A DNA stretch of 64,000 bases from a virus (lineage: Duplodnaviria > Caudoviricetes). The position numbers and the translations under genes were made by a program. The notes beneath the pieces are model-generated. The model saw only the letters and a list, made by a program, of their open reading frames with translations, searched no databases and was not told where the DNA came from. Position 1 is the stretch's first letter. Each line of letters begins with the position of its first letter. The stretch is from positions 42,320-106,319 of the IMG/VR virus record IMGVR_UViG_3300033062_002592; one strand, written 5' to 3'. Of the stretch, positions 3,961 to 64,000 are shown one piece after another.

Positions 3961-3961
3961 A

Positions 3962-4270: not shown

Positions 4271-4302
4271 TTGTATTGCTTATATGTATATGAGATGTTT
4301 TT

Positions 4303-4644
4303 TTGCTGATAGACAATACAAGAGTCCAAGTTATGCAATTTGAAAACCTTCGAGAATTTATTAAGCCAAGTTCAAGTTGCTATGTTTTAAAGTATGAACT
4401 CGGCGATGAAGATGCTGTCTATTACACCATCGCTGATGGTTCAAACTTTGCATTATTGGCATTCTGTCTTGATAAAAATTTTAAAACGGAAAACGTCAAG
4501 ATTGAAGGAGATAAGATTATAGAAGCTACAGGCCCCTCAGGAACCACAGTTGTTCTTGCAAATGTTATTAATGATACATTCTTAGAAGCCGTTCTTGATG
4601 AATATTTTGGGAAAAAACCTAGGAAAAAGAAAAATGAAAATTAA
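4303..4644 (+). CDS. hypothetical protein
   Basis: 113-aa ORF, TTG start, downstream of a promoter. Confidence 0.6.
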   Translation: MLIDNTRVQVMQFENLREFIKPSSSCYVLKYELGDEDAVYYTIADGSNFALLAFCLDKNFKTENVKIEGDKIIEATGPSGTTVVLANVINDTFLEAVLDEYFGKKPRKKKNEN

Positions 4645-7047: not shown

Positions 7048-7635
7048 ATGAAGATAAGTAATGAAGAATGGGAAACTTTAAAAACCTTTTTTATGTTTCA
7101 AAAAGGTTTAAGTATGCAAGAAGATATATTGATACTATATAATTTTTCTAAAAACATGGGGTTTAACCATATTCTTGAACTTGGAATAGGAGTAGAGGCA
7201 AATGCAACAAAAGCTTTCGCCTTTGCTAAAGCACAGTTGCCAAGTACATCCTTTACAAGCGTTGATTTCAGCGAAGAAAATATTAAAATTTCCAGAAAAA
7301 TTCTTGAAGATTTTCATCTTGATAAATATGTTGAATTAATACATTCAGATTCGGTGGAATTTCTAAAAAACGCTCCTAAAAACTATTATGATTTAATATT
7401 TATAGATACAAGCCATTCATTTGAACATACTGTTGCAGAAATTGAGTTGTCAACAGAAAAATTCGATCCTGCTGGATACATATTTTTGCATGATACAAGA
7501 CAAATAGGAGTAAAAAATGCCATAGATTATTTTGTGCAGAAAAATCCATTATTCATACACACAGAGTTTAATACTGTAGCTGGGTTGGGTTCCCTTGCAA
7601 AAAAATCTTATGAAAAACAATTGAAAGAAATTTAG
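7048..7635 (+). CDS. class I SAM methyltransferase (Methyltransf_24-like)
   Basis: ILELG, DLIFIDTSH, GYIFLHD. Confidence 0.8.
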   Translation: MKISNEEWETLKTFFMFQKGLSMQEDILILYNFSKNMGFNHILELGIGVEANATKAFAFAKAQLPSTSFTSVDFSEENIKISRKILEDFHLDKYVELIHSDSVEFLKNAPKNYYDLIFIDTSHSFEHTVAEIELSTEKFDPAGYIFLHDTRQIGVKNAIDYFVQKNPLFIHTEFNTVAGLGSLAKKSYEKQLKEI

Positions 7636-7657
7636 TCATTAAAATATACGTGATTAT

Positions 7658-8515
7658 ATGAATCAAAAAAAGATAGCTATTATGGGCGCCAGGGGGCATG
7701 TTGCAACAAATATTTACTGGCAATTACGAGATAATAATGAAATTTACCAATTTTCTAGGGAACAAATTGAAGATCCTCAAGGAGGATATCTTGTTTATCC
7801 TTATTCAGATTTTTTCAACTATGATTATGATTTAATTATAAATTGTGTTGGCTTTGGAAATCCAGAGGAGATTGAAACCGCTGGAGTGCAGTTATTTCTT
7901 GTAACCGAAGAATATGATAATAAAGTCCTAAGTTATTTAAATGAACATCCAAACACAAGATATATTTTTATCAGTTCTGGTGCTGTTCATAATCAATTTT
8001 TTGTTGATGACCTTCAAAAAAAGAATTTTTATCAGATTTCAAAGATAAATGCCGAAGCAAAACACAGGTCTCTTCCAGCTTTAAATATAGTTGATATTAG
8101 ATTGTATTCATTTTTTACTCGTTTTACAAATCTTGATTCCAAATTTTTTATGAGTGCTTTGATAAAGGCAATTTTAACTAAAACGGTATTTGTAACAAAC
8201 GAGAGAGAAATGATTAGGGACTATATAAATCCAAAAGACCTTATTAATCTTATAGAGTTATCCCTTAAACCAAAACATTTAAATGAAGGATTTGATATAT
8301 ACAGTCTAAGTCCCATTTCAAAGTTTGAAATACTTCGGTATTTTCAAGATAAATGTAGATTAAAGGTAAAATTCGATAACAGATATAAAAGCTTTAGTTC
8401 TGTGGGTAAAGATATTTATGCTTCAACTTTTAAAAGGAAAGCAGCGATTCTCGGTTACAAACCAAAATATACATCTCTGAAAACCATAAAGGAAGAATCT
8501 GCATGTCTCCTATGA
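7658..8515 (+). CDS. NAD-dependent sugar epimerase/reductase (SDR)
   Basis: IMGARGHVA Rossmann start, FISSGAV, YQISK (YxxxK), RDYI. Confidence 0.75.
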   Translation: MNQKKIAIMGARGHVATNIYWQLRDNNEIYQFSREQIEDPQGGYLVYPYSDFFNYDYDLIINCVGFGNPEEIETAGVQLFLVTEEYDNKVLSYLNEHPNTRYIFISSGAVHNQFFVDDLQKKNFYQISKINAEAKHRSLPALNIVDIRLYSFFTRFTNLDSKFFMSALIKAILTKTVFVTNEREMIRDYINPKDLINLIELSLKPKHLNEGFDIYSLSPISKFEILRYFQDKCRLKVKFDNRYKSFSSVGKDIYASTFKRKAAILGYKPKYTSLKTIKEESACLL

Positions 8516-10293
8516 AAACTTCAGAATATATTGTAAAATATTTACATGAATATGGAATCGAATATATATTCATGATTCCGGGTGGCGGAGCCATGTTTCT
8601 CAACGATGCGGTTGGTTATGGACCCATAAAATACGTCTGTACACATGGCGAACAAGCTGCGACCATGGCTGCTAAAGCTTACGCACAATACAGTGGCAAA
8701 CTTGGAGTTGTCTGTGTAACAACAGGTTGCGGCGGCACAAATACAATAACTGGAGTTTTGGATGCATATCAAGATAACGCTCCAATTCTAATTATTTCAG
8801 GTAACAACAACCTTTGGGAAACAATCAAAGGCTCGGGTCTTAAACTAAAACAATTTGGTGGACAAGAAGCCGATATATTATCAATTGTTGAACCCATCAC
8901 AAAATATGCTAAAATGGTTGAAAAGCCAGAAGATATAAAATATGAATTACAAAAGGCAATTCATGTTGCAACCCATGGAAGTCCGGGACCCGTGTGGCTT
9001 GACATACCTATGAATATTCAATGTGCCCAAATTGATGAAACAAAACTTTCAGAGTTTGTACCATCCAGAGAAGTATTGAAACCTATTAGTGAAGAAATTT
9101 CAAAAATGGTGATGATGTTTCAACAAGCTTCAAGACCTATAGTTTTGGTTGGACAAGGAGTTCGACTTGCTAAATCTATATCCGAATTTAAAAAATTCAT
9201 AGAAGAAAACAATCTTCCAGTAGTTGCCTCTAAGTTAGGAATTGACATTCTTGAATATGATAATCCATTATATATTGGTAATATTGGAACTAAAGGTGAC
9301 CGTGCAGGAAATTTTGCGATTCAAAATTCGGATTTAGTTTTAGTTTTAGGTTCAAGACTTGCAGTTAGTTCCACAAGCCAGAGGTTTAATTGGTTTGCCA
9401 GAGAAGCCAAAAAAATTGTAGTTGATATAAATTCTATTGAGCACCAAAAGAAAACTGTTAAAATAGATTTATTTATTGAATGTGATTTGAAAAAATTTTT
9501 TGAAATGATGAATTATATTTGTTTAAAGACAGCAAAATCTTCTTGGGTTGAAATATGCCAACATTGGAAAGAAATCTTCAAAACATATTCACCAAGCTTT
9601 GCAGAAAGCGAAAAAATCAATCTGTATTACTTTGCAGAAATACTTTCTCAAAAACTGCGTCCAAACAATGCTATTGTAGGCGATGCAGGATCAAATATGT
9701 TTATTCCCGCCCAAGGAATTCATATTAGTGGTTCCCAAAGATTCATTTTTAGTGCGGCTCAAACGACCATGGGATTCACGCTTCCAGCTTGTGTGGGCGT
9801 CAGCTTAGCAAAAAATAAAGGAGAAGTCATAGGCATCTGCGGCGATGGCTCTTTCCAATTTAACATTCATGAATTGCAAACAATAAAACATCATAATTTA
9901 CCAGTTAAAATTTTTGTCTGGAATAATGGAGGGTATCTCACAATGAGAAATACTCAAATGAACTTTTTCAAAAGGCTTAATGCTTGCACCCCAGAAACTG
10001 GCGTTTCATTTCCAGATACATCAAAGATAGCTAATGCCTATGATATAATGTATTTCAAGGCTGATAACAGTAAATCTCTTCCAAGAATTATAGATGATGT
10101 TTTAAATCATAAAGGACCAGTAATATGTGAAGTTATGTGTCTTTATAACCAACCAATTTTAACAGTGCTTGGAAAGCAAAATCCAGATGGTTCGTTTACA
10201 TCAAGACCGCTTGAAGATATGTATCCATTTTTAGATAGAAAAATATTCTTTAAGGAAATGATAATAAACCCGGTTGAAACTTCTTATGATTAA
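8503..10293 (+). CDS. thiamine-pyrophosphate-dependent enzyme (acetolactate synthase/YerE-like), probably branched-chain sugar synthesis; start may be 8512
   Basis: PGGGAMFLND, HGEQAA, GPVWLDIP, TPP motif GDGS...NNGGY, C-terminal PLEDMYP; sits beside CDP-glucose dehydratase. Confidence 0.85.
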   Translation: MSPMKTSEYIVKYLHEYGIEYIFMIPGGGAMFLNDAVGYGPIKYVCTHGEQAATMAAKAYAQYSGKLGVVCVTTGCGGTNTITGVLDAYQDNAPILIISGNNNLWETIKGSGLKLKQFGGQEADILSIVEPITKYAKMVEKPEDIKYELQKAIHVATHGSPGPVWLDIPMNIQCAQIDETKLSEFVPSREVLKPISEEISKMVMMFQQASRPIVLVGQGVRLAKSISEFKKFIEENNLPVVASKLGIDILEYDNPLYIGNIGTKGDRAGNFAIQNSDLVLVLGSRLAVSSTSQRFNWFAREAKKIVVDINSIEHQKKTVKIDLFIECDLKKFFEMMNYICLKTAKSSWVEICQHWKEIFKTYSPSFAESEKINLYYFAEILSQKLRPNNAIVGDAGSNMFIPAQGIHISGSQRFIFSAAQTTMGFTLPACVGVSLAKNKGEVIGICGDGSFQFNIHELQTIKHHNLPVKIFVWNNGGYLTMRNTQMNFFKRLNACTPETGVSFPDTSKIANAYDIMYFKADNSKSLPRIIDDVLNHKGPVICEVMCLYNQPILTVLGKQNPDGSFTSRPLEDMYPFLDRKIFFKEMIINPVETSYD

Positions 10294-11278
10294 TGCCCCA
10301 CCTTTAGTTTTTTTCAAAATAAATCAAATTGATTATTCGCAATTAAATTCAAAAAAGGTCTCTATAGTCTTAGTAACTTTCAGAAAAACCCCCAAATATG
10401 AAATGCTCTATGAATCACTGTCACACCAAACAATCAAAAATTTTGAAGTTGTGTTAATAGAGGAACAATATGAATTGCATAAAGAACTTGTAAAAAATCT
10501 TTCTAAAAAATTCAATATTTCAACAACCCATGTTTATTGTGAGTCAACGGTACCCGAAAATGCAAAGGCTTTGAACGAAGGAATTGTCCACAGCACAGGC
10601 GATTATATTATGAATATCAACGACTGTATGTATTTTCCTTATAGGTGGCTTGAAAAACATTTGCTTGTTGCTTCAAAGGATTTTCTAAGTTTGGGCGCTC
10701 GCTATTTTACATATTCAACAAATTTTCCAATCGAAAAATATTTATCGGGAATAATTGAAATTCCCAAAGAACAAGATAAAAACATTTCAAAGTTTTTAGA
10801 AGAAAAAAGTGGAATAAAAGATTATTTGAACATCCATTTCGGTGAACATATAGTATCAAGTCCTCAAGATTATAGGCTTTTGGGGCTTCCAACAGATATA
10901 TTCAAAGAAGATAATCTTATTTTAGAAGCATTGCCAGGATGGAATTATGGTGGAAACTCGATGGCTCCTACAGAAATGTTTCTTGAAATAAATGGGTTTG
11001 ATGAAAGATTTGATAATGGTTATGGTTGGACAGATTGCGAAATTGGCATTAGAATGTATAATAAAGGACATAAAGCATTTATTAATCTATCAAATTGGTC
11101 TCTTGAAATTCAAGATAAAGACCATGTTGATGTTATAGAATTAAAAGCAGATTTAAAGGATAAAAACAAATCTGATAATAACTGGAAACTTTATGAGGAA
11201 GCTTGTGATAAAAAATTAACTTTTGTTAATCCAAACAAAAATTTGAGGGAAATAAAAGAAAAAAATAAGGGAAAGTAA
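10286..11278 (+). CDS. GT-A glycosyltransferase (GT2 family)
   Basis: VSIVLVT, QTIKNFEVVLI, ALNEGI, NGFDERFDNGYGWTDCEIG. Confidence 0.8.
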   Translation: MINAPPLVFFKINQIDYSQLNSKKVSIVLVTFRKTPKYEMLYESLSHQTIKNFEVVLIEEQYELHKELVKNLSKKFNISTTHVYCESTVPENAKALNEGIVHSTGDYIMNINDCMYFPYRWLEKHLLVASKDFLSLGARYFTYSTNFPIEKYLSGIIEIPKEQDKNISKFLEEKSGIKDYLNIHFGEHIVSSPQDYRLLGLPTDIFKEDNLILEALPGWNYGGNSMAPTEMFLEINGFDERFDNGYGWTDCEIGIRMYNKGHKAFINLSNWSLEIQDKDHVDVIELKADLKDKNKSDNNWKLYEEACDKKLTFVNPNKNLREIKEKNKGK

Positions 11279-11280
11279 AA

Positions 11281-12333
11281 ATGTCTTCCTTAGAAATTTA
11301 TAAAAATAAAAAGGTGCTTATAACCGGCAACACTGGGTTTAAGGGTTCGTGGCTATCTTTATGGCTGCAGTCTCTTGGAGCAAATGTGTATGGATATTCT
11401 CTTCCTCCTCCAACAGAACCCAATATGTTTAATATTTTAAATTTAAGCACAAAAATTGATACACATTTTGATGATATAAAAGATTTTGCTTCCTTGCTTT
11501 ATTTTTTCAAGATAATTGACCCAGAAATTGTTATTCATCTTGCCGCGCAACCAATTGTTAAAGAATCTTATATGAATCCTAAATTAACATTTGAGACAAA
11601 TGTTATGGGAACAATTAACGTTCTTGAATCAATTAAAAGAACAGACGGTATTAAGGCTGCAATCATAATAACAACAGACAAAGTTTATGAAGATAAATAT
11701 CCTTATATTTATAAAGAAACAGACAAATTGGGAGCAAATGATCCATATAGTTCAAGTAAAGCTTGTGCTGAAATCGTTACAGATTCTTATAGGCGTGCAT
11801 TTTTTAAATCAAAAAATATACAAGTAGCCACTGCACGAGCTGGAAACATTCTTGGGGGAGGAGATTGGGCGGTAAGAATAATTCCAGAAACAATTAAAAA
11901 ATTGCAAAGAGGAGAAAAGGCAACAACATATATGCCAGAAGCTGTTAGACCATGGCAGTTTATTATGGATCCCCTTTATGGATATTTATTACTTGGATCA
12001 AAATTGTTAGAAGGCCCAAAATATTCGGATGCATGGAATTTTGGTCCTCCAGAAACAAATTATCTTACGGTTGAAGAGTTGATTAAAAAAATTATTCGTT
12101 ATTGGGGTTCTGGAGACTACATTACAATTGATTCAGATAAAACAATGCCAGAGTCCGAGCTTTTAAAGCTGGATTGTGAAAAATCTAAAAAATTGCTAGG
12201 TTGGAAAGGAAAATATTCCATAGATGAGACTTTAGAAAAAACTGTTTTATGGTATAAGAATTATTATTCAGGAAAAACAAATATGTATAAATACACATTA
12301 AGTCAAATAAAGGAGTACGATTCAATAAGATGA
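11281..12333 (+). CDS. rfbG: CDP-glucose 4,6-dehydratase
   Basis: KKVLITGNTGFKGSWLSLWL, HLAAQP, TTDKVY, DPYSSSKAC, ARAGNILGGGDW, RPWQ, AWNFGP. Confidence 0.93.
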   Translation: MSSLEIYKNKKVLITGNTGFKGSWLSLWLQSLGANVYGYSLPPPTEPNMFNILNLSTKIDTHFDDIKDFASLLYFFKIIDPEIVIHLAAQPIVKESYMNPKLTFETNVMGTINVLESIKRTDGIKAAIIITTDKVYEDKYPYIYKETDKLGANDPYSSSKACAEIVTDSYRRAFFKSKNIQVATARAGNILGGGDWAVRIIPETIKKLQRGEKATTYMPEAVRPWQFIMDPLYGYLLLGSKLLEGPKYSDAWNFGPPETNYLTVEELIKKIIRYWGSGDYITIDSDKTMPESELLKLDCEKSKKLLGWKGKYSIDETLEKTVLWYKNYYSGKTNMYKYTLSQIKEYDSIR

Positions 12334-12902
12334 GTGATGAATCAGATTCACTCTTTACATATAATCAAAATAATATTGAAATAAATGCAATTGAATATAT
12401 AGAGCATTATACAAGCGATTATAAAAAAGAAGGAAAAATTCTTTATGATACAATTTTAGAACTTAATGCTAAAATCATTGTAGATTTAGGGATTCGCGGT
12501 GGTTGTTCAACAAGAGTATGCCTCTTAGGAGCTAAAGAAACAAATGGAGAAGTTTATAGCTGCGATATAATTTTCCCAGAAAAATCACTTAAAGATTTTA
12601 TAGAAAAGTATGGGTTAAAAAAATATTGGCATCTTCATATTGGTGATGATATAGAGTTTGCATCACAAATAGATAAAAAAATAGATATTCTGCTTTTAGA
12701 TTCGAATCATGAAACTCAGCATGTTATAGCACAATTAGTTTGTTATCCTGAAAAGGTTTCTCCATTAGGTAGAATATTTATACATGATTCAAAGTATCAA
12801 AGTGTAGAAGATGCCATTAACGCTTTTATGTTAAATAATAACAAATGGATTAAAATAGAGCATGACACAACTCTTGGTTATGCTGAGTTTAGGAGAATAT
12901 AA
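12330..12902 (+). CDS. class I SAM methyltransferase (Methyltransf_24-like)
   Basis: IVDLGIRGGCST, IDILLLDSNH, GRIFIHD; paralog of 7048. Confidence 0.8.
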   Translation: MSDESDSLFTYNQNNIEINAIEYIEHYTSDYKKEGKILYDTILELNAKIIVDLGIRGGCSTRVCLLGAKETNGEVYSCDIIFPEKSLKDFIEKYGLKKYWHLHIGDDIEFASQIDKKIDILLLDSNHETQHVIAQLVCYPEKVSPLGRIFIHDSKYQSVEDAINAFMLNNNKWIKIEHDTTLGYAEFRRI

Positions 12903-12906
12903 CTAA

Positions 12907-14043
12907 ATGAAAGTTGGAATGGTCAGTCCTTTTCGGGTTCAATGCGGCAACGCTCAGCACACAGAAAATCTTGTCATAGAACTTGTAAAACAAGTTGATT
13001 CTTTTAAAATATTCGCAGAAAATGTTATTCCTCCTGAAACAGAAATTGGGCCAATAAATAAAAATATTCATATCGATTACGAAAGATGTTGGCAGCGTGG
13101 TCAAGGATTCGAAATTTTAGAAAGAAAAATCAAGGAATATTCACCAAATGTAATACATATACAATTTGTTGGTGGCTTATTCAATGAATTATCTTATGAT
13201 CCAAATAGCGCATTTCAAAAAATTATTGAAAATTTGAGAAATGTTGGAATAAAAATTATTTTATACATGCATGATGTACCAGAATACTTCCCAGATGAAA
13301 AACAAATATATAATTGGTATAAAAATTTGCAAGCAATATTTTTTGTTGCAAATCCATCAACTAAAAATGGAATTAAAAAATGGTTTCCAGAAGCTCAAGT
13401 ATATATTATCCCTCTAGGAACTCCAAATGTAACTATTACCGACAAACTTTTAGCAAGACAAAAACTGGGTTTAAACGAAAAAGATTTTATATTGATGCAA
13501 CCTGGATTTTATGGTAAAAACAAAGGCATGAAAGAAATCATTGATAATATTCAGCATATTCATATACCGAATTTTAAAATGGTTTTTGCGGGAACAATGC
13601 ATCCTTTTTCAATGGATTTAGATAAGGTTTATATGAAAGAATGTATTAAATCTGCACTTAAAGTTAAAGATAGAGTAATTTTCGTAAATAAATTTTTAAC
13701 AAAAGATGAAATAGATTTGTATTGTTCCGCTGCAGATTTCTTTATTTCCAACCAATCAATGATATTTGGCTATGCTGGTACAGCAAGCGTTCATGGCTTA
13801 TTGCCATTTGGTAAACCCCTAATATTGAGTACAAGCCCCAAATTATCTGCCTTTACAGATAATGTAGATTGTAAAAAATTTGCTCCAAATCATCTTGTAG
13901 AAACTATAATGGATCTTTATACAAAAACTGAAATTCAAAAACAACTTTCAAATGGTGCTCTTGAATTGGCTGAAAAAACAAGCTGTAAAAATGTTTCAAA
14001 ACAATGTGTAGAAATCTATAATAAGGTGTGCAAAATAAAATGA
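12907..14043 (+). CDS. GT4-like glycosyltransferase
   Basis: CGNAQHT, IHIQF, IIPLG, GFYGKNKG; paralog of 15760 and 16890. Confidence 0.8.
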   Translation: MKVGMVSPFRVQCGNAQHTENLVIELVKQVDSFKIFAENVIPPETEIGPINKNIHIDYERCWQRGQGFEILERKIKEYSPNVIHIQFVGGLFNELSYDPNSAFQKIIENLRNVGIKIILYMHDVPEYFPDEKQIYNWYKNLQAIFFVANPSTKNGIKKWFPEAQVYIIPLGTPNVTITDKLLARQKLGLNEKDFILMQPGFYGKNKGMKEIIDNIQHIHIPNFKMVFAGTMHPFSMDLDKVYMKECIKSALKVKDRVIFVNKFLTKDEIDLYCSAADFFISNQSMIFGYAGTASVHGLLPFGKPLILSTSPKLSAFTDNVDCKKFAPNHLVETIMDLYTKTEIQKQLSNGALELAEKTSCKNVSKQCVEIYNKVCKIK

Positions 14044-14849
14044 CAGAAGAAAAACTTTTAAACATAATCATAGTAAATCATAATAATTGGAGATATTTGG
14101 CAGGTTGTTTAGCCTCAATTTTTCAAAATACAATTTCAAAAACTGAATATGAAATAATAGTTGTTGATAATGCTTCTACAGACATATCCTTAAAGCTTTT
14201 GGAATATTTACATGAACAAGGAGAGCCAGTTAAAATCATTAAAAATACAGAAAATTTGAATTATGTACTAGGTAATAATATTGGATTGAAAAATACAAAT
14301 TCAAAATACATACTATTTTTAAATAATGATACAATTTTAGATAAAAATTGTCTTAAAGAAATGTTGAATGTATTTACATTAGAACCAAAGGCTGGAATGG
14401 TTGGAGCAATACAATATTCTCCTTCTGGAACTTTAGCGTGCCCACCTCTTGGTAAATTTAATAGGAATCCTGAAGATTGGAGTTCTGTTGGATTTGACCC
14501 ATGTGACAATCCGGAAAAGCTTCCTAAACCATTTGTAGAAGTTGATAATACAAATACCGCGTGCGCAATGATTTCTAAAGAGGTTTTAAACAAAATAGGA
14601 TATATGGATGAAGAATTTTGTCCATGTATGTATGAAGCTGAAGATTATATTATGCGAATAAAAGTTGCAGGATTTAAAATTTTGGTATGTACAACAGCAA
14701 AATTGGTTCATTATGTTGCTGCAACCACAAATATTACGCAAGATACGCAACGATATTATACCTATGTAGTATTGCCAAAAAACCGAAAAGTTTTTATTAA
14801 GAAATGGGGAAAATATTTTGAGGAAGAAAAAAAATGTCAAAAATACTAA
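14040..14849 (+). CDS. GT2 glycosyltransferase
   Basis: IIIVNHN, EIIVVDNASTD, GNNIG, LFLNNDT, MDEEF..EAEDY. Confidence 0.9.
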   Translation: MTEEKLLNIIIVNHNNWRYLAGCLASIFQNTISKTEYEIIVVDNASTDISLKLLEYLHEQGEPVKIIKNTENLNYVLGNNIGLKNTNSKYILFLNNDTILDKNCLKEMLNVFTLEPKAGMVGAIQYSPSGTLACPPLGKFNRNPEDWSSVGFDPCDNPEKLPKPFVEVDNTNTACAMISKEVLNKIGYMDEEFCPCMYEAEDYIMRIKVAGFKILVCTTAKLVHYVAATTNITQDTQRYYTYVVLPKNRKVFIKKWGKYFEEEKKCQKY

Positions 14850-15358
14850 ATCCTTTTGAAAACGTAGAAGCTCATTACAATACAAAACTTATTGGTGCAT
14901 CATATGAAAATAAAATCATCTTGGACTTGGGTGCATCCAATGGAGACTCCGCAGAATATTTTCTAAATAATGGAGCAAAGTTTGTTATAGCAGTTGAAGG
15001 AAATTTCAATTTTCAAGGAAGAAATGTTTTTGCAGAATTGCTAGAAAACAGTAAATTATTTAATGGAAAAATAATTCCAATTTTTATGTGGATAGATAAT
15101 CCCAAACAAATAGAAAATTTAATTATTGCATATAAACCAGATATTGTGAAAAGCGATATTGAAGGAGCTGAAATACACCTGTTTAATATTCGAGATGAAG
15201 TTTGGCAGTTAGTACCAGAATATATTGTTGAAACTCATGAAGGTTATTTACATGACGATTCAAATAAAATTATGTATTTAAAGTGTGAAAAAAATAAATA
15301 TAAAATTATGACTGATACGTGTATTGTTGCCCATGTTATATATACAAAAAGGGAGTGA
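14834..15358 (+). CDS. class I SAM methyltransferase (FkbM-like)
   Basis: ILDLGASNG, DIVKSDIEGAE, VETH; paralog of 5548. Confidence 0.75.
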   Translation: MSKILNPFENVEAHYNTKLIGASYENKIILDLGASNGDSAEYFLNNGAKFVIAVEGNFNFQGRNVFAELLENSKLFNGKIIPIFMWIDNPKQIENLIIAYKPDIVKSDIEGAEIHLFNIRDEVWQLVPEYIVETHEGYLHDDSNKIMYLKCEKNKYKIMTDTCIVAHVIYTKRE

Positions 15359-15364
15359 TAAAAA

Positions 15365-15760
15365 ATGAAAGAAAATCCAAATGTAGAATGGATTAAAAGA
15401 AGAAAAGAACTTTTGGAAAATATCAAAGGATTTGGAATCAAAGGAGACAGAATTCAAATAACAACACAGTTAAGCTACATACATAGTTCAATGTATGAAT
15501 CTATGGTTGGCTGGCAAAATTGGATCAATGGATGGATTTCTATTGAACTTAATAAAAAAATTAATGTTGCAGATTCAAATGTGCTAATTCTTTCCGACAT
15601 AGAACTAAAAGATTTACATGAAAAATTCAAAGATTTTGCTACGAAATTCATAGAACTTGACATAAAATTCACAGAAATTGTAACCAAAAAAATGAATAAG
15701 AAAAAACTCAAAGAGTTTCAACAAGGCCTCGATGATAATATGAAAAGGATGATTGTTTAA
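15365..15760 (+). CDS. DUF2153-like archaeal helical protein
   Basis: W-x-K..LLE, DR, GW..W, FIELDIKFT pattern recalled from the DUF2153 family of Thermoproteota. Confidence 0.55.
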   Translation: MKENPNVEWIKRRKELLENIKGFGIKGDRIQITTQLSYIHSSMYESMVGWQNWINGWISIELNKKINVADSNVLILSDIELKDLHEKFKDFATKFIELDIKFTEIVTKKMNKKKLKEFQQGLDDNMKRMIV

Positions 15761-16899
15761 TGAAAATAGCAATGGTAACCACATGGCGCACAGCCTGTGG
15801 AGTTGCAAAATATACTGAAGAATTATGCAACGAGCTTTCCAAACTTTGTGAATTGAGGATTTTTGCAGAACATACCCAAAAAGAGCTTGAGCCAATAAAC
15901 AAAGATGCAAACATTTTTTATAAACGATGCTATATTAGAGGAGGCTCTTATCAAGAAGAACTCGAAGAAATATTGGATTATAAGCCAGACCTAGTTCATG
16001 TACAATTCGAATCATCTATGTATAGTGAATCTTATAACCCAAACAGTCTTCATCTTAAATTTTTGGATACATTACATATAAATGGTATAAGAACCTGTAT
16101 GACCTTTCACAATGTATTACCATTTCCAAATTTCGTAAACAATGAGGTGCAGCAAATTGCATTATGGTACAGTAGCTTGAACAACAAAGTTATTGTTGGC
16201 AACGAAACCACTAAAAACGAATTTTTGAAATGGAATAAAAATATAGATATATCTGTAATACCTCTAGGTTCAACAATTTTTGATTCTATTACAAAAGAAG
16301 AAGCTCTTAAAAAACTGGGTCTTTCCAATAAAATTTACATAATACAGCCAGGATTCTATGGAGCCGACAAAGGAATGGTTCAACTTGTTAAATTGATGCC
16401 TGAATTGCTTCAGAAATTCCCAAATATTCATCTAGTTTTTGCTGGTGGACTTCATCCATTGGCTCCAGATGCTTGGAAAATTCACACAAAAGAATGTCTC
16501 AAAGAAATCATCAAATTAAACCTAATCAAATATGTATATCCTTTAGGAAAGTTTCTTTCAGAAGATGAATTAAATGTTTGGCTAGGGTTATCTGACATAG
16601 TGATGCTAAATTACCACTGGGTTTCCGGTTTATATAGCGCATCAGCATCCGGCCATCGAGTCCTATGCACTAACAGACCCATAATCATGAATTCTCAAGA
16701 TGTGCGCCTTTCAGAGTTTCAGGATGGCATTCAATGCTGCAAAGCTGATGATGCCCATATGGTAGAAGCCATTTCGAAATGCTTATCTGATAAACTTTAT
16801 GCTGATAAAATAGCTAAAGGCGCTATTGACTATGCCCACGAAACATCATTTGAATCTATAGCAAAAAAACATATGGAGATTTATGAAAAATGCAATTAG
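15760..16899 (+). CDS. GT4-like glycosyltransferase
   Basis: CGVAKYT, VHVQF, VIPLG, GFYGADKG, SASASG. Confidence 0.82.
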   Translation: MKIAMVTTWRTACGVAKYTEELCNELSKLCELRIFAEHTQKELEPINKDANIFYKRCYIRGGSYQEELEEILDYKPDLVHVQFESSMYSESYNPNSLHLKFLDTLHINGIRTCMTFHNVLPFPNFVNNEVQQIALWYSSLNNKVIVGNETTKNEFLKWNKNIDISVIPLGSTIFDSITKEEALKKLGLSNKIYIIQPGFYGADKGMVQLVKLMPELLQKFPNIHLVFAGGLHPLAPDAWKIHTKECLKEIIKLNLIKYVYPLGKFLSEDELNVWLGLSDIVMLNYHWVSGLYSASASGHRVLCTNRPIIMNSQDVRLSEFQDGIQCCKADDAHMVEAISKCLSDKLYADKIAKGAIDYAHETSFESIAKKHMEIYEKCN

Positions 16900-17981
16900 G
16901 ATTAGTTTCAACCTTCGGAGTTAAATGTGGCCTTTCAACCTATAGTACGTATCTCGGCAACGCTCTGCAAAATTCAAAAATTTCTGTCACAGGATTATCA
17001 GAATTTCCTTTTCCAGATGAAAAAGCTATTACTCCGGATTTTCAACCCAAATTTCCATTCTTCAATTGTTGGAAAAGAACAGAGTTCTATGATAGATTAA
17101 TCAAAGAAAGTCATAACTATGATATAATTCATATTCAACATCAGTTTGGATTGTTCAACAATACCTATGCTTGGATACAGCTTTTGCAAAAGATTAAAAA
17201 GCCCATTCTTACAATCCATGATATAGTTCCACCAAATGAGCAGCTTTCAACCTATTTCACAGAAACATTTCACCATGCTGATAGGCTCATAGTACATACG
17301 AATACTTGCAAAAATATGCTTGAAAGTTGGAACTGTCCAAAAGATAAAATCGAATTGATTCCGCATGGCACAAAACTCATAGATGTTCCCACCAAAACTG
17401 AAGCTCGTAAGGAGCTTCAACTTCCAGAAAATGCAAAGATAATTTTATCATGGGGATTTATTTGGGAATCCAAAGGCTTGCTAGAGCTAACGAATATTCT
17501 TTCAGAAGTTAAAAAAACTTATCCAGAAGCAATTTTAATTCATGCCGGCGGCGTTCACCCTATATTGCAGAAATCGCAATATGTTGCGAACATTTTAAAA
17601 GCCGCAATAAAATCTGGGCTTGGACCAAAAGATTTAATTATAACCCAGTGGGTTCCAGAAGATAAAGTGCCAACATGGTTCGGCGCTGCAGATGTAATTG
17701 TTTTGAACTATATGAGAGGCAGTGCCTCAGCCAGCGGTGCCGCGCACAGAGCTATGGCTGGTCATCGACCAATTATAAAAACAGATGATCCATGTGTTGA
17801 AGATATTACAGGTTATACCGTTGCGCGTTTCGATATTAATGCTCTCTATAATGCGATATTGAAAGTTCTACAGGATGAAGTTTTGCAGAAAACTTTGGTT
17901 GAACAGGCAGAAAAAGCTTCCATAGAAACTTCGTGGCAAAACGTTGCTTTGAAGCACAAAAAGCTCTATGGAATGTTTTGA
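16890..17981 (+). CDS. GT4-like glycosyltransferase
   Basis: CGLSTYS, IHIQH, IPHG, WGFIWESKG, SASGA, SWQNVA; 3' end overlaps the convergent gene by 16 bp. Confidence 0.85.
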   Translation: MQLGLVSTFGVKCGLSTYSTYLGNALQNSKISVTGLSEFPFPDEKAITPDFQPKFPFFNCWKRTEFYDRLIKESHNYDIIHIQHQFGLFNNTYAWIQLLQKIKKPILTIHDIVPPNEQLSTYFTETFHHADRLIVHTNTCKNMLESWNCPKDKIELIPHGTKLIDVPTKTEARKELQLPENAKIILSWGFIWESKGLLELTNILSEVKKTYPEAILIHAGGVHPILQKSQYVANILKAAIKSGLGPKDLIITQWVPEDKVPTWFGAADVIVLNYMRGSASASGAAHRAMAGHRPIIKTDDPCVEDITGYTVARFDINALYNAILKVLQDEVLQKTLVEQAEKASIETSWQNVALKHKKLYGMF

Positions 17982-34132: not shown

Positions 34133-34579
34133 TTACTTTATTGTACTTATAAAGGCCACAACGCCCGTTCCAGAACCACTAACAACTCTACCTATTGGAT
34201 AACATGCTATACTTGATATAGCGGCGTTTGCATTTGCCCAACTATTGCTACAAACGTTTCCTGCTCCAGATAAGAACAATAAGTCTCCTGGATTGGAAGT
34301 TTGAGTTGACACAACCTTTGTTAGGTTTTTAGCCATTCCCCAAACAAGCACTGGGCATGTATCTCCATCAGATACGGTTGAAAGTGCAAGTCCTGCGACA
34401 GGAACTGCAGAACCGGACAATGTTCCAGATAATGGCTGAAATACATCTGTACTGTTATCTCCAGAAACAAATTGAACTATTTTGCCCGCGGTAATACTAC
34501 CAGATGCTCTGAATGTTACTGCAAGACATGGAGTTGTAGCTATATAATCTTTTGTTCCTTCCGTAAACATGAATGCCAT
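34133..34579 (-). CDS. capsid cement/decoration protein (DUF2190-like)
   Basis: ITAGKIV, GLAL, GD..PV.VWG, GDLL, IGRV pattern; between scaffold and MCP. Confidence 0.65.
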   Translation of the reverse strand: MAFMFTEGTKDYIATTPCLAVTFRASGSITAGKIVQFVSGDNSTDVFQPLSGTLSGSAVPVAGLALSTVSDGDTCPVLVWGMAKNLTKVVSTQTSNPGDLLFLSGAGNVCSNSWANANAAISSIACYPIGRVVSGSGTGVVAFISTIK

Positions 34580-34595
34580 TTTCCATCATTCCTCC

Positions 34596-35189
34596 TTAAT
34601 AGGATTCGAGAATGTTATGCTTCTGTGCGAAAGCTTTGACTTCTTGGAACCATTTAGGAACATCCTGTGCAGTGATTTCAACTGGAGTTTCATTGGCATC
34701 TTCGACTCTTGCTCCACCAATTTCTTTCTTGATAGGCTTTTTATCATCTTCCTCTGGTTCTTCACCATTCGGAGGCTGGTCGTGTTTCACATCTTTAGGA
34801 ATTCCGCCTTTAGCGGGAACATTAGTGAAAGTTGCTTTATCCTGCTTCACTGGAGCTGGAGCTACCTCTTTTTTAGCTTCCTCTGGTTTGCAACCCTCTT
34901 CTTTCTTTGCTTCATCCTTAACCTTTACTTTAAAGGCTTCCTCAAGTTTAATTCCTAAAGCAGCGATGGCTTGTTCAAGCTTTGTGAAAGCGGCTTCCTC
35001 TTTCTTAGCTTCATCGTCCTTTTTCTTAGCTTCGTCTTTCTTTCTCTCATCCTCATCTTTCTTTTTAGCCTCATCTTCGTATTTCTTAAGTCTCTCTTCG
35101 AGTTTTGCAATCTGTTCCCCAAGCAAAACTACTGCGTCTGTGCCTGCTGGTTTAAGTGTAGTGGCTTCGATTTCTGTTTTAGTTGACAT
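34596..35189 (-). CDS. nested in-frame scaffolding protein (internal start)
   Basis: GGAGG (35202-35198) 8 nt before in-frame ATG of MSTKTEIEA; like lambda C/Nu3 or Mu I/Z. Confidence 0.55.
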   Translation of the reverse strand: MSTKTEIEATTLKPAGTDAVVLLGEQIAKLEERLKKYEDEAKKKDEDERKKDEAKKKDDEAKKEEAAFTKLEQAIAALGIKLEEAFKVKVKDEAKKEEGCKPEEAKKEVAPAPVKQDKATFTNVPAKGGIPKDVKHDQPPNGEEPEEDDKKPIKKEIGGARVEDANETPVEITAQDVPKWFQEVKAFAQKHNILESY

Positions 35190-35804
35190 TTCTCTTTCCT
35201 CCATTTTTTTATTTTCTACTGAAAGTCTAGCCTCAGCTTCTTTCGAAGCCTCCGGCGTGACTGATTTCTCAGCTAATGCTGAGGTAATACCAGCGATAAA
35301 CGATACTGGTTGAAAATCGCTGGAACTGTAAGCGGGATCTGTTACTATAGAAGCTTCCCGCAATTTAATATTTTTAATAACATCATGTGCATTTTTACAT
35401 CTGCACATTTTAAAAGGTTTCGTTTGTTTACCACAAATTGAGCAAAATGCATCTGCTGTTGCGCCAATACTAATATGTCTCAACCTGCCCTTTAAGACAG
35501 CTCTTTGTATATATGGATCATCAACTTCAGCTTTGAATAAAACTCTTTTGTTTGGAACATCATGTACACCCTCTGTTAAACCACCAATAACATCTCTGGC
35601 TGATTTAGAGTGGTCTAATCTAAGCGTGGCTCCTTTAACTTGTTCTGCTATCTTTGATAATTCCTTTTCATCAATTGCAAAATTATTAGCACATACTGTG
35701 GTATTTACAAGTTCACCTGAAATAAGAAGGCTTTTATCTTCTCCTTCCTTTCCTGCAAACTCGACTATAGATGCGTCCCATGTTAAATTTAAATTATTAT
35801 CCAT
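34596..35804 (-). CDS. prohead protease with a C-terminal scaffold domain
   Basis: LRLDH, IGG, ISIG (catalytic Ser), CxxC..CxC insert, EASIVTDPAY; acidic/Lys-rich coiled-coil C-terminus. Confidence 0.85.
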   Translation of the reverse strand: MDNNLNLTWDASIVEFAGKEGEDKSLLISGELVNTTVCANNFAIDEKELSKIAEQVKGATLRLDHSKSARDVIGGLTEGVHDVPNKRVLFKAEVDDPYIQRAVLKGRLRHISIGATADAFCSICGKQTKPFKMCRCKNAHDVIKNIKLREASIVTDPAYSSSDFQPVSFIAGITSALAEKSVTPEASKEAEARLSVENKKMEEREMSTKTEIEATTLKPAGTDAVVLLGEQIAKLEERLKKYEDEAKKKDEDERKKDEAKKKDDEAKKEEAAFTKLEQAIAALGIKLEEAFKVKVKDEAKKEEGCKPEEAKKEVAPAPVKQDKATFTNVPAKGGIPKDVKHDQPPNGEEPEEDDKKPIKKEIGGARVEDANETPVEITAQDVPKWFQEVKAFAQKHNILESY

Positions 35805-61816: not shown

Positions 61817-62299
61817 TCAGGATGCATAAAGTTCGGGATGATGAACGGGGCAGAATTGCTTATCATATGTTCGCTTTGAAAAATTACAGTTCATACATAA
61901 AACTTGATAACCTTCTGGATAATTATGTTGTTTAACCCATAGAATCATATCTTTTTTATGTTCTTTCTGTTCCAAATGTCCGTTTCCATGAATGTGGTCT
62001 AGTGTAAGAAATTCAAAATGAGATTCACCGCAACATTGACATTTTAATTCTGGAGAATAATGTTGAAAGACTTCGTGCCGAAGATTAATACGATAATTTC
62101 TAATTTTTTTCTTGATAATATCATAATTATTTCTCCAATATTCTTTGCTATATTTATGATAATGTTCTTTATTTTTTTCATAATATCTTTTATTTATTAA
62201 TTGAAGCTGTCTTTTTTTACATTCTGGGTTATAACAAATTGTGCGGGTTGGATTATGTCTTGGAGTGAAGGATTCTCCACAGTAGATGCAAATAGGCAA
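61817..62299 (-). CDS. HNH-type endonuclease with an N-terminal Zn finger
   Basis: C..CGE....LTLDHI.GNG...YQVLCMNCN..K. Confidence 0.8.
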   Translation of the reverse strand: MPICIYCGESFTPRHNPTRTICYNPECKKRQLQLINKRYYEKNKEHYHKYSKEYWRNNYDIIKKKIRNYRINLRHEVFQHYSPELKCQCCGESHFEFLTLDHIHGNGHLEQKEHKKDMILWVKQHNYPEGYQVLCMNCNFSKRTYDKQFCPVHHPELYAS

Positions 62300-62412: not shown

Positions 62413-62532
62413 CCGTATCTTGTTTCTTAAGATATCAGAGATACGGCCACCTCGTATCTTGAGTCTTGCGATTCAAGACTCTGTCTCTATCGTCTATCTT
62501 AAGTCTTGCGACATGCATCTTAACTCTTACGA
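62413..62532. repeat. cluster of 17-bp direct repeats and inverted repeats (origin, packaging or operator-like)
   Basis: TATCTTGAGTCTTGCGA 62455, TATCTTAAGTCTTGCGA 62495, CATCTTAACTCTTACGA 62516; IRs CCGTATCT/AGATACGG and GAGTCTTG/CAAGACTC. Confidence 0.7.
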
Positions 62533-62844
62533 CTCATGTATCATGTATTAATATATCATGTTCGAAGTTCAACTCACAATGTTATCTATATTGCATGAAC
62601 AATATAAATTCAACAATCTCTGCAATAGCGCGCATTACATCATTTACATTAAAACTATATAAACTTTATATATACATCAAAATCTATACTGCATATTGAA
62701 AAACAACGTGCAATATGTATCGTACAACTCAAGATTCGAATCTCTTCGAACAAATATACATGAAATCAACATAGTTCGAAATTCTTCGAAGCGTCCCATA
62801 ATCTTTATAAGCGACTTTTTACATAGAGCTTCTCGCGTGAAAAC

Positions 62845-63555
62845 ATGACAAGCAAAAAAGCAACAAAAAGTGCAACTAAGCAGTTAATTGCTGAGTTGCA
62901 CTCTAGTGCATCGAAAGTTGTACTCGATAGTGCAACTAAAGATGCAATTAAAACAGAAACAAAAACAACAGAAAATAATACGAAAAGTGCAACTGCTGAT
63001 GTAAAAGTGCGTGACGTAAAAGTGTTATCTCAAAAGAAAACTTCTGATGAACTCGCTAAGAGTACACGCGCTATTGACAACAAAAGTTTCAGAAGCTATG
63101 TCAACGTGCAGTTAGACGACAAGACATTTGACAGTGCAACTTCAAGTGCATACTACTATGAAACTGAAGATGTCAACGCAGAGAACAAGCTAGACTTCTC
63201 ACAGAAAATTGCAAACGAAAAAGTTGAACTCTACGTGAACACAATGCAGTTGAACTCTCAGATGACAGCGCAAGTGATACAGAAAATGTATCGTACGTGT
63301 GGCAGTGCGTATTGTGACAAAATTAGAAACAAGCTATACGCACTATCAGTTGAACTCTACGATTCAACTCTCGCTGAAACGTGCGAAACATTCGAAGAGT
63401 ACACTGCGAAGCTACTTGAGAAGTACATCACAAGTGAACTTCTCAGTAAGCTCACAAAAGAGAACAAGCTATTAGTCAAAATAGACTACTACAGAAGACA
63501 AGCGCGAAAACAACGCTACATATTCATAAAAGTGCGCACTCAAAGTGCATCATAA
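62845..63555 (+). CDS. hypothetical protein (no Pro, no Trp, one Gly) in the GG/CC-free island
   Basis: 236-aa ORF; TTTATAA box at about 62805; T-run after the stop. Confidence 0.75.
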   Translation: MTSKKATKSATKQLIAELHSSASKVVLDSATKDAIKTETKTTENNTKSATADVKVRDVKVLSQKKTSDELAKSTRAIDNKSFRSYVNVQLDDKTFDSATSSAYYYETEDVNAENKLDFSQKIANEKVELYVNTMQLNSQMTAQVIQKMYRTCGSAYCDKIRNKLYALSVELYDSTLAETCETFEEYTAKLLEKYITSELLSKLTKENKLLVKIDYYRRQARKQRYIFIKVRTQSAS

Positions 63556-63616
63556 GAAAACAACTGAAAACACAACAATCTCTTCTTTTTTTTGTGAACA
63601 CTGTGAGTTGATAAAA

Positions 63617-63778
63617 ATGATAAACAAAGAAAACGAATCAATAGTTAAACAAACAATGAACTATCTCAGTGAACTAAAAAGTATCAACAGAGAAATGTCA
63701 GAAGTAATTGAATACTCAGAGTTATTCTACATGAAACTACAAAGAAAATTCGAGATTGAATTCAGACTTGAACTCTGA
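63617..63778 (+). CDS. small helical protein (no Gly/Pro/Trp) in the GG/CC-free island
   Basis: MINKENESIV...FRLEL, followed by a hairpin and T-tract. Confidence 0.6.
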   Translation: MINKENESIVKQTMNYLSELKSINREMSEVIEYSELFYMKLQRKFEIEFRLEL

Positions 63779-63792
63779 GTTCAATTTTTTTT
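63768..63792 (+). terminator. hairpin plus T8 terminator
   Basis: TTGAACTC-t-GAGTTCAA-TTTTTTTT. Confidence 0.6.
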
Positions 63793-63907
63793 CATCATTG
63801 CGCGAGCCGATCCTATCTTGAGTATTACGATATCAGATTCAAAAAATCGCAAAGTTTTCATCATGTATCGTAAGATATACGAATCAGCCGATCCGATCCA
63901 CTCCGAC

Positions 63908-64000
63908 TTTGCCTTGCCTTTGCCTAACCAATTTGCCTTGCCTTTGCCTAACCAATTTGCCTTGCCTTTGCCTAACCAATTTGCCTTGCCTTTGCCTAAC
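63908..64000. repeat. perfect 24-bp tandem repeat, at least 3.9 copies, running off the window edge
   Basis: Unit TTTGCCTTGCCTTTGCCTAACCAA at 63908, 63932, 63956 and 63980. Confidence 0.95.

Follow-up and report, generated by a model that had tools for sequence, protein, structure and literature searches.

What could lead a virus to give up a dinucleotide, and with it three amino acids, across an entire gene cassette? The question is raised by the window analyzed here, a stretch of 64,000 nucleotides from a viral record of 106,319 bp. Near its right end, an unstranded island of 1355 bp (62452..63806; 35% G+C) contains only three GG/CC sites, namely a single CCC at 62795-62797, which counts as two CC, and a single GG at 63301-63302. 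Base composition predicts 48.7 CC and 36.0 GG for this segment. The mean over 20,000 mononucleotide shuffles was 84.3 GG/CC sites (sd 7.7) and the minimum was 57, so that the observed count lies far below every shuffled control; its Poisson probability is approximately 2e-32. A sequence-only reading had already counted one CCC and one GG, and both counts were reproduced, while the deficit (3 vs. 84 ± 8) proved larger than the one estimated there. The sharp borders described in the same reading are equally evident, with GGCCACC ending at 62451 and CCGATCC beginning at 63807. Save for this CCGATCC (63807-63813), the ban extends to 63887.

The 106-kb virus genome has no second stretch of this kind. 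When GG/CC-free gaps are ranked over the 106,319-bp record, the top three (506, 505, and 345 bp) are the three pieces of the island, and the next-longest gap found elsewhere is 135 bp. Outside the island, the observed/expected ratio of CC/GG is approximately 1.1, i.e., the island alone is depleted. As a background control we used 119 unrelated viral loci (chance matches of a 14-mer border motif), and not a single 800-bp window in them had a GG/CC observed/expected ratio below 0.35. The G+C content of the island equals that of the genome and is not lowered; instead, G and C are shifted into GC, CG, TG, and CT steps, the GC and CG steps being raised.

Among longer words, GATC is absent from the island (0 vs. 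4.2 expected), as are GGCC and CCGG, and CTAG is depleted. In the pooled islands of all cassette loci, GATC occurs 2 times vs. 22 expected and CTAG 8 times vs. 22. The same four words, GATC, GGCC, CCGG, and CTAG, are under-represented genome-wide. On the other hand, TGCA, GCGC, TCGA, and CGCG are over-represented in the island, in agreement with the earlier impression that the first three are abundant and GATC missing, and TGCA, AGCT, GCGC, and TCGA are over-represented in the pooled islands. The enrichment of the latter four rules out a general avoidance of palindromes or restriction sites. A longer or gapped banned word was likewise rejected, as no di-, tri-, or gapped word other than GG/CC was found to be depleted in the island.

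Purifying selection strips the duplex step CC/GG, as well as GATC and CTAG, from the whole segment, and the removal of CC/GG spans both strands and both coding and non-coding DNA. As a consequence of the ban, Gly, Pro, and Trp are given up in the cassette proteins: ORF1 contains one Gly and no Pro or Trp (29 such residues expected), and, as had been claimed, neither of the two ORFs of the island has Pro or Trp, their Gly total being one. Codon junctions are free of GG/CC too, with 0 observed vs. 18.4 expected in ORF1 of the present genome, G000, and 0 vs. 16.5 in ORF1 of its syntenic relative G001, and hence selection at the level of codons or tRNAs was rejected. The ORF1 protein recoded in the codon usage of the genome would carry 19.6 GG/CC sites, whereas one is observed. 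The 393-bp non-coding leader contains 2 GG/CC vs. 22 expected. In relatives at 71–94% DNA identity, substitutions creating GG/CC number 0–4 vs. 9–54 expected; since diverging relatives do not create GG/CC and the G+C content is unchanged, hypermutation and composition drift were rejected. As the ban covers GG as well as CC on a single strand, duplex DNA is the likely target, and the strictness of the ban implies that something inside the infected cell reads the GG/CC step. The proposal of strong selection on the DNA sequence is thus supported by codon junctions, the leader, the substitution pattern, and conservation across 15 loci.

These 15 loci all carry the cassette, 13 of them under a near-total ban and 2 under a relaxed one, with normal flanks. 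Protein identities across the loci fall to 30–37% and the ban is still kept, so that it holds among homologs in related viruses, and G001 contains exactly one such island in 100 kb. The cassette recurs in a group of tailed, probably archaeal viruses. The motif avoidance known in phages either runs weakly through the whole genome or removes individual restriction sites; here, the ban is strict enough to cost three amino acids in every cassette protein and is kept through deep divergence. It marks the DNA in need of protection and the two letters at stake. No matches were obtained by blastn of the region against phage records, and no related loci via a neighboring 356-aa protein. In the window and the first 20 kb of the record, no Rfam RNA family was detected, nor were tRNA genes found. 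A search for the host in genome contigs yielded nothing with TerL and only an irrelevant 28% match with NrdD.

The cassette is delimited by repeats (coordinates of stranded features are on the plus strand unless stated). The left border comprises three copies of a 17-nt repeat, TATCTTRAGTCTTRCGA, starting at 62455, 62495, and 62516 (62455..62532), and within it a perfect 8-bp palindrome with a 5-nt loop (GAGTCTTG then CAAGACTC; 62461-62481). A further, inverted copy lies within the leader (62718..62735, minus strand). With ≤2 mismatches allowed, the 15-mer core of this repeat is confined to the island borders in both 100-kb genomes searched, while the 14-mer border motif had only chance matches across viral contigs, none of them with islands; a two-copy border pattern matched an unrelated tandem repeat. 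The only CCC of the island (62795..62797) lies a few bases upstream of a TATA-like box, TTTATAA (62804..62810), and has equivalents in G001 and L006. This box, approximately 35 nt before the start of ORF1, is the putative promoter of the cassette. It is followed by a GG-free, SD-like GTGA (62837-62840), and in most of the 12 loci displayed TATA-like boxes and GTGA precede ORF1. The altered Shine–Dalgarno sequence pointed out earlier was found ahead of both ORFs, each preceded by GTGA without GG, whereas GGTGA/AGGAG-type cores precede 56 of 129 other ORFs.

Downstream of ORF1, a run of eight T preceded by CTCTTC (63586..63593) likely serves as an oligo-T terminator or attenuator, judging by its sequence, and a CTCT-T-run is likewise found 3′ of ORF1 in relatives. 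A second T8 run follows ORF2 (63785..63792). The right border (63807..63899) contains CCGATCC (63807-63813), a copy of the 17-nt repeat (63814-63830), a partial inverted copy (63862-63878), and CCGATCCGATCC (63888-63899); its GCCGAWCC motif is kept in relatives. Next comes a C-rich 24-bp tandem repeat with the unit TTTGCCTTGCCTTTGCCTAACCAA (63908..64000), which is truncated by the end of the window, resumes at the start of the record, and has six copies in the contig L014, and in relatives an array of the CCTTGCC/CCTTTCC type occupies the equivalent position. In all loci whose right flank is long enough, the C-rich array and GCCGAWCC lie immediately next to the island. Altogether, a non-coding stretch of approximately 370 bp with direct, inverted, and 24-bp tandem repeats borders the island and is conserved in relatives.

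ORF1 (62845..63555; 236 aa) belongs to an unannotated family (alignment A1) and is present in 15 of 15 loci. Its N-terminal tail is rich in Lys, Ala, Ser, and Thr, its middle part is beta-rich, and its C-terminal part is a predicted winged helix-turn-helix (HTH), in which the recognition helix is the most conserved part of the family. The single Gly codon, GGC at 63301-63303, falls into a conserved turn before this helix, and the tolerated GG exceptions are Gly codons in the conserved CGGAYGDK turn of the HTH. A comparison of the ORF1 model by VIA-align gave 1sfu as the best match (Z 7.2, rmsd 2.2 Å over 70 residues), although Z values of this size are common for unmatched models, followed by many winged-HTH regulators with Z of about 5. 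Foldseek found nothing at E <0.001 in the PDB and nothing usable in the ESM Atlas. The set of Z-DNA contacts (helix-3 Asn and Tyr, wing Trp) is incomplete, the ORF1 family being devoid of Trp, and the spacing in Z-alpha domains differs from the helix-3 Asn-x-Leu-Tyr of this family. A nuclease-like set of conserved residues was not found in it.

ORF2 (63617..63778; 53 aa), called as a gene in L014, has no Gly, Pro, or Trp and occupies a variable cargo position. The cargo ORFs of the 15 loci form several unrelated clusters of swappable, tiny genes, all with no Gly, Pro, or Trp. Neither Pfam nor PHROGs contains a family for ORF1, ORF2, or 14 family members; relatives of the T5 pre-early proteins A1, A2, and dmp were not detected with them in ORF1 or ORF2, and no cassette protein matched a known Aca/Acr, pre-early, or anti-restriction family. 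The earlier suggestion that the two ORFs are anti-defence or host-takeover factors would fit the architecture of a conserved, predicted winged-helix protein accompanied by variable tiny genes. In acr-aca loci, the gene of a conserved HTH regulator accompanies small genes that vary and are unrelated, and the cassette similarly pairs a conserved predicted winged-helix gene with variable small genes behind a repeat-bearing promoter region. Unlike acr-aca loci, however, the cassette has its regulator gene first rather than last, and shows no sequence match to known Aca or Acr. ORF1 may define a winged-helix protein family that is new, comes with conserved DNA repeats, and is probably carried by archaeal viruses.

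The cassette lies at a divergent junction, beside the HNH/terminase end of the late block. An HNH endonuclease gene (61817..62299, minus strand), the first of the leftward block of late packaging and structural genes, is 150 bp from the island, and in the relative L143 the island is immediately flanked on its left by an HNH gene, a 173-aa ORF, and TerL; no terminase small subunit was recognizable near the island. The HNH gene, the terminase of one relative, and the adjoining repeat-rich array are consistent with a nearby genome end. The two ends of the contig overlap, however, and close it into a circle, and L014, a 100% identical contig from another sample, runs across the contig junction and both island borders. 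Hence the terminal position of the island is an assembly break, and it gives no support to the first-injected region suggested in the sequence-only reading. L014 and the synteny of G001 likewise refute an assembly chimera.

The explanation that we tentatively favor, as possible rather than probable, is by analogy with the first-step-transfer (FST) region of T5: the island may be a first-exposed pre-early segment purged of words read by host nucleases, i.e., a CCN/NGG protospacer-adjacent motif (PAM) and sites of the GG/CC, GATC, and CTAG types. It would be a self-contained immediate-early (pre-early) cassette, arranged as border repeats, a TATA promoter, the winged-helix gene, one to four variable tiny genes, oligo-T runs, and border repeats, in which viral DNA must function while host nucleases are still active. 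The first purged word would be the CCN/NGG PAM, on which archaeal type I CRISPR-Cas relies for spacer uptake as well as interference; the others would be the restriction sites GGCC, CCGG, GATC, and CTAG, which are only partly avoided in the remaining genome. The winged-helix protein would regulate the cassette via the border repeats, the variable small proteins would serve takeover or anti-defence, and the repeat-rich array would delimit the first-exposed DNA.

Several published systems resemble such an arrangement. In T5-like phages, restriction-modification (R-M) and CRISPR strike only when their sites fall within the FST region, and direct and inverted repeats abound in the non-coding DNA that flanks this region (PMC10644984). 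The cassette may be likened to the FST of T5/BF23 and to the leading end of T7, which enters by transcription, as a short first-expressed block; in T5/BF23 the sequence of this block sets the sensitivity to R-M and CRISPR, as only sites inside it count (PMC10644984), and the repeat-rich non-coding border, in T5 the injection-stop region, has a counterpart here in sequence. Unlike the T5 FST, the cassette is known from a circularly closing contig, lacks homologs of A1, A2, and dmp, and belongs to a virus that is probably archaeal; moreover, its purge hits a whole dinucleotide rather than particular 4–8-bp sites and rewrites proteins. In Pyrococcus furiosus, spacers are taken up beside 5′-CCN-3′ near free DNA ends (PMC5737086), and CC-type PAMs recur in types I-A, I-B, I-C, and I-F (PMC8482600). 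Published PAM depletion in phage genomes (Kupczok and Bollback, 2014; PMC4246573), including that of a CC PAM in Pseudomonas phages (PMC12174588), is weak and genome-wide. The likeness is that a 2–3-bp word read by CRISPR-Cas is counter-selected on both strands, CC/CCN being a common PAM (PMC8482600, PMC5737086); here, the depletion is near-total within 1.4 kb and absent elsewhere in the genome.

Evasion of PAMs and restriction ranks first among the candidates, since the islands are also purged of GATC and CTAG, two words avoided genome-wide. The island lacks GG/CC (save the sites given above), GATC, GGCC, and CCGG, and their genome-wide avoidance makes these words putative host defence motifs. 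Of the two causes proposed earlier, evasion of CCN/NGG PAMs and GG/CC restriction sites is thus favored by the joint purge of GATC and CTAG, but the lack of CC/GG depletion outside the island speaks against it, as CRISPR pressure alone would be expected to leave some depletion genome-wide, contrary to the ratio of approximately 1.1. One banned dinucleotide across divergent members and habitats, despite PAMs that vary between hosts, fits better with a virus-borne or universal reader. The ban offers a sequence signature by which uncultured viruses could be searched for the genes exposed or expressed first, prime anti-defence candidates, and it gives a connection, open to testing, with CC-type CRISPR PAMs or a novel CC/GG reader.

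Such a universal reader is a less likely option: infected archaeal and bacterial cells may hold an undescribed reader of CC/GG in incoming viral DNA, and the first genes of unrelated viruses would have converged on avoiding this step. Such a reader might belong to host defence or be a takeover tool widespread among viruses. If it is neither CRISPR nor restriction, it would amount to a new kind of virus–host interaction, and the cassette with its adjoining C-rich array would be among the clearest handles for finding it.

We regard a virus-made reader as rather unlikely. It could be a CC-type nuclease or nickase, encoded by the virus or delivered in the virion and directed against host DNA, or a viral CC/GG mark, the latter being the second cause proposed earlier; a cassette free of sites would survive, or remain readable, in the first minutes, with the remaining genome protected or entering later. 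The nickase Nt.CviPII of chloroviruses cuts at CCD, and viral nickases with sites of two to three letters therefore exist. One dinucleotide is banned in all cassette lineages in any habitat, as if reader and cassette were co-inherited, the remaining genome is not depleted, and the genome encodes a DNA methyltransferase and several unannotated enzymes. However, no candidate enzyme was found in this genome, including any like the Nt.CviPII-type nickases and methylases that read a short CC word; ORF1 has no nuclease-like residues, and the cargo proteins are tiny. The contexts of surviving GATC sites point to a GGATC-specific methyltransferase rather than a CC/GG-wide one, and genome-wide avoidance of GGCC and CCGG persists, although it should be needless under a general CC mark; a general CC-methylase was rejected on these grounds. 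A TGT/DpdA gene (PF01702) was not found in G000 and G001, both records of which may be incomplete according to CheckV, while 14 of 14 control genomes were positive. The proposal of a virus-encoded GG/CC modification therefore found no support here. A similar puzzle in T5, which spares its own FST DNA while destroying that of the host, speaks in favor of a virus-made reader (PMC10644984).

Still more doubtful is a cis-acting architecture, in which the region is an origin, packaging, or control region and CC words (GCCGAWCC and the CCTTGCC arrays) are protein signals; ORF1 might then be an iteron-type initiator or regulator, kept from binding or spreading into its own gene by CC/GG-free DNA. The C-rich array and GCCGAWCC directly adjoin the island wherever the right flank suffices, the 24-bp tandem spacing is iteron-like, and the recognition helix is the best-conserved part of ORF1. 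In RepE-type plasmid origins, the gene of a winged-helix protein lies beside tandem repeats of about 24 bp, with related repeats near the promoter; 24-bp tandem repeats are common to both systems, but ORF1 has one recognizable winged-helix domain, and RepE is among the Foldseek matches of ORF1 only at noise level (TM ~0.15). The cumulative GC skew has its minimum at the cassette, although skew is confounded with gene orientation. The model of a RepE-type origin explains no dinucleotide ban. Avoidance of stray sites normally needs no total removal of CC/GG over 1.4 kb on both strands and would not normally demand that unrelated cargo proteins be rewritten.

Escape from chromatin, by which a GG/CC-free segment would stay histone-poor and be transcribed at once, seems very unlikely. 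Archaeal histones are reported, from SELEX experiments with HMf histones, to favor (G/C)3 elements in 10-bp phase. GG or CC is part of six of the eight (G/C)3 words, and the virus itself is probably archaeal. Against this, the G+C content of the island is not lowered and its GC and CG steps are raised, and the parallel purge of GATC and CTAG is left unexplained. Finally, we give almost no credence to a cause in RNA or translation (sparing of Gly/Pro/Trp tRNAs or RNase escape), to mutation bias or hypermutation, or to a chimera: all codons with CC- or GG-containing anticodons are indeed missing, but the junction, leader, substitution, and contig tests refute these readings, since GG/CC is gone from codon junctions (0 vs. 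18) and the 393-bp leader, GG and CC are both banned on one strand, the G+C content of the island equals that of the genome, relatives diverge freely without creating GG/CC, and a contig of identical sequence, obtained from another sample, runs over both borders of an island that has a syntenic counterpart in G001.

The GG/CC-free island (window 62452-63806; 1355 bp, 35% G+C) contains GG or CC at only two places, CCC at 62795-62797 and GG at 63301-63302, against 49 CC and 36 GG expected from its base composition. In 20,000 shuffles of the island, the mean number of GG/CC was 84.3 (sd 7.7; minimum, 57), and hence the depletion noticed in the sequence-only reading is significant against shuffled controls (Poisson P ~2e-32). 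The observed to expected ratio is 0.03-0.07, while no 800-bp window in a background control of 119 unrelated viral loci had a ratio below 0.35. The window is the final 64 kb of a 106,319-bp IMG/VR virus record (G000), and the three longest GG/CC-free gaps of the whole record are the three pieces of the island, the fourth being 135 bp. The boundaries are as sharp as had been described: GGCCACC ends at 62451 on the left and CCGATCC begins at 63807 on the right, and save for this single CCGATCC the ban extends to 63887.

The ban shapes both proteins and non-coding DNA. ORF1 (62845-63555, plus strand; 236 aa) encodes a single Gly and lacks Pro and Trp (29 residues of these three kinds expected), and ORF2 (63617-63778, plus strand; 53 aa) encodes none of the three. 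Recoded in the genome codon usage, the ORF1 protein would carry 19.6 +/- 4.1 GG/CC versus one observed. No GG/CC spans a codon junction in ORF1 or in its homolog from a syntenic relative, G001 (18.4 and 16.5 expected, respectively, from codon-order shuffles), and the 393-bp non-coding leader has two versus 22 expected. Selection thus acts on DNA, as the sequence-only reading had proposed. Selection at the level of tRNAs or RNases was rejected, since the purge extends to codon junctions and non-coding DNA and, on a single strand, covers GG as well as CC; mutation bias was also rejected as the cause. The G+C content of the island is not lowered, G and C having moved into GC, CG, TG, CT, and TC steps, and besides GG/CC only GATC and CTAG are depleted in it among di-, tri-, tetra-, and gapped words. 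Both ORFs have a GG-free SD-like signal, GTGA, versus GGTG/GGAG-type cores at 56 of 129 other ORFs.

A word-based search yielded no relatives of ORF1. A full HMMER search identified 13 proteins (30-38% identity), 11 of which have no Pro or Trp and retain Gly solely in an invariant turn, ...CGGAYGDK.... Fifteen independent loci yielded cassette DNA, all with normal GG/CC in the flanks. The depletion first seen in the window is shared by these homologous islands, being near-total in 13 loci and relaxed in two (L018 and L139), which are still depleted three- to five-fold. The only exceptions in the 13 strict loci are the codons of the turn glycines and, in some of these loci, a single CCC lying a few bases ahead of the TATA box. 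The G001 genome (101 kb; core proteins 50-60% identical) contains exactly one island, which is 1.67 kb long, holds four ORFs, and occupies the corresponding map position. In pairs of close relatives (71-94% DNA identity; 43-309 substitutions each), GG/CC were created 0-4 times versus 9-54 expected; hence, the ban is maintained at present and not by descent alone. The island is therefore real, strongly selected, and conserved.

The relaxed islands (L018:189-1263 and L139:2957-3817) contain 19 and 12 GG/CC, respectively, clustered in a few runs (for example, CCCCC and GGGGG), and their ORF1 proteins contain Pro and Trp. These loci are natural controls for what else changed alongside the relaxed ban.

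Several words are under-represented genome-wide, namely GATC, GGCC, and CCGG, as well as CTAG in G001. The islands purge them more fully, together with all other CC/GG: the pooled islands have two GATC and eight CTAG (22 expected for each), and neither GGCC nor CCGG. General avoidance of palindromes was rejected, as TGCA, AGCT, GCGC, and TCGA are enriched in islands. GATC occurs in G000 at 0.39 of expectation, and all 125 sites in 106 kb lie within GGATC or GATCC (HGATCD, zero), suggesting a GGATC-specific virus methylase that would shield the sites from a GATC-cutting host enzyme. A candidate is the N6/N4 methyltransferase at G000 34534-35475, whose PDB relatives include N4-cytosine methyltransferases. 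A 7-deazaguanine system was rejected after a search of G000 and G001 for a TGT family gene found none. In G001, CTAG is strongly avoided and the surviving sites favour TCTAGA.

The cassette opens with border repeats, which lead to a TATA-like box and GTGA, then to ORF1 and a CTCT-T8 run; one to four small ORFs come next, with a T run behind each, and border repeats close it. ORF1 is present in all cassette loci, and the ORFs downstream of it fall into several small families without mutual relationship, all free of Gly, Pro, and Trp. In the two 100-kb genomes, the 15-17-nt repeat TCTTRAGTCTTRCGA (at most two mismatches) lies at island borders only, and it is still recognisable in relatives with ORF1 only ~30% identical. 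Every locus with enough right flank has, to the right of the island, a GCCGAWCC motif and then a strand-asymmetric C-rich array, built of six copies of a 24-bp repeat in G000 and of CCTTGCC/CCTTTCC words in other loci. On the minus strand, the 24-bp unit has the pattern G2-N3-G2-N4-G2-N3-G2, which might form a two-tetrad quadruplex. The pair CCGATCCGATCC and TTGCCTTTGCCTAA (window 63888-63930) recurs at G000:490-535, downstream of a 95-aa ORF (G000 179-466) of ordinary GG/CC content, which is thereby bracketed by the same signals as the island border.

No usable match to ORF1 was found in Foldseek, Atlas, Pfam, or PHROGs. Its AlphaFold model (pLDDT 73; >85 in the C-terminal part) has a disordered tail rich in Lys/Ala/Ser/Thr, then a small beta-rich part, and probably a winged helix at the C terminus. 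In VIA-align, a viral Z-alpha domain scores highest (Z 7.2, rmsd 2.2 A, 70 residues), and many wHTH regulators come next (Z ~5). GDKxRNxLY, the best-conserved segment, would be the recognition helix; the glycines that persist make up the turn preceding it, which would explain why their codons are the only tolerated GG sites. We infer that ORF1 may bind the conserved border repeats and control the cassette.

The sequence after the island recurs at the start of the G000 contig, and L014, a 100% identical 9.6-kb contig of a different sample, runs from late genes through the island and six 24-bp repeats into the G000 start. The assembly must then be either circular or terminally redundant and collapsed, and the island came to lie at the contig end through a break in the tandem repeat, a position that is no evidence of a genome terminus. 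The same contig rules out a chimera. The record is classed as linear and 78% complete, yet its ends overlap (window 63908-64000, G000:1-113; L014:6700-6870). The island sits where the leftward late block and the rightward genes diverge, and coincides with the minimum of cumulative GC skew, for which gene orientation is a confounder. The late block begins, 150 bp from the island, with the gene of an HNH endonuclease (window 61817-62299). In locus L143 (2554-5655), the HNH gene, a 173-aa ORF, and TerL directly adjoin the island, TerL being one ORF past HNH; in G001, the HNH homolog is located elsewhere. In HK97-like phages, an HNH gene adjoining the terminase genes flanks the cos site. By this analogy, a genome end near the island is at most plausible, and a cos or pac site could lie between the late block and the island.

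To our knowledge, the well-described duplex readers of bare CC are those that recognize CRISPR-Cas PAMs. CCN is the PAM of type I-A (Acidianus) and some I-B and I-C systems, and CC that of type I-F (PMC8482600); in Pyrococcus furiosus, spacers are taken up beside 5'-CCN-3', preferentially close to free DNA ends (PMC5737086). T5-like phages are sensitive to restriction-modification and CRISPR only with sites in first-step-transfer DNA, which is bordered by a repeat-rich non-coding stretch (PMC10644984). This offers a possible reason for purging just one small block, and the cassette with its adjoining array is alike in form. We tentatively rank first the reading that the cassette is pre-early DNA, the first to be exposed, and has been cleared of PAMs and restriction words, close to what was initially envisaged; against it counts the absence of any CC/GG depletion outside the island. 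A virus-borne reader of CC/GG (a nuclease, nickase, or mark) would better fit the same dinucleotide ban across very divergent lineages, and is overall a less probable explanation. Weaker still, and rather improbable, is a cause that acts in cis and is linked to the CC-rich signals next to the island, and avoidance of histones is very unlikely. The remaining probability falls to a reader of a kind so far not thought of. In published cases, PAM depletion is weak and spread over the genome (PMC4246573; PMC12174588), whereas the cassette ban is near-total and local, and no published description of such a local, near-total dinucleotide ban was found in the literature. We regard the cassette as an extreme case of motif avoidance in putatively first-acting viral DNA.

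The virus encodes TerL, portal, a family-B polymerase, an RFC-like clamp loader, ERCC4 and PD-(D/E)XK nucleases, and NrdD, besides the N6/N4 DNA methyltransferase. It also carries a ThiF (E1-like)/JAB operon, a PLP enzyme, and a lanthionine-dehydratase-like C-terminal domain (G000:13449-16696), and a 17-kb glycan-synthesis cluster (window 492-17981) with seven glycosyltransferases, SDR sugar enzymes, a ThDP enzyme, and methyltransferases. Sequence searches with TerL and NrdD did not find the host. The best matches of TerL and PolB are in haloarchaeal tailed viruses (26-29% identity), and the promoters resemble TATA boxes; the host is probably an archaeon of an anaerobic habitat. NrdD (window 2212-3960) is only 27% identical to its G001 counterpart (G001:24616-26508), versus 50-60% for neighbouring genes, suggesting independent acquisition or replacement.
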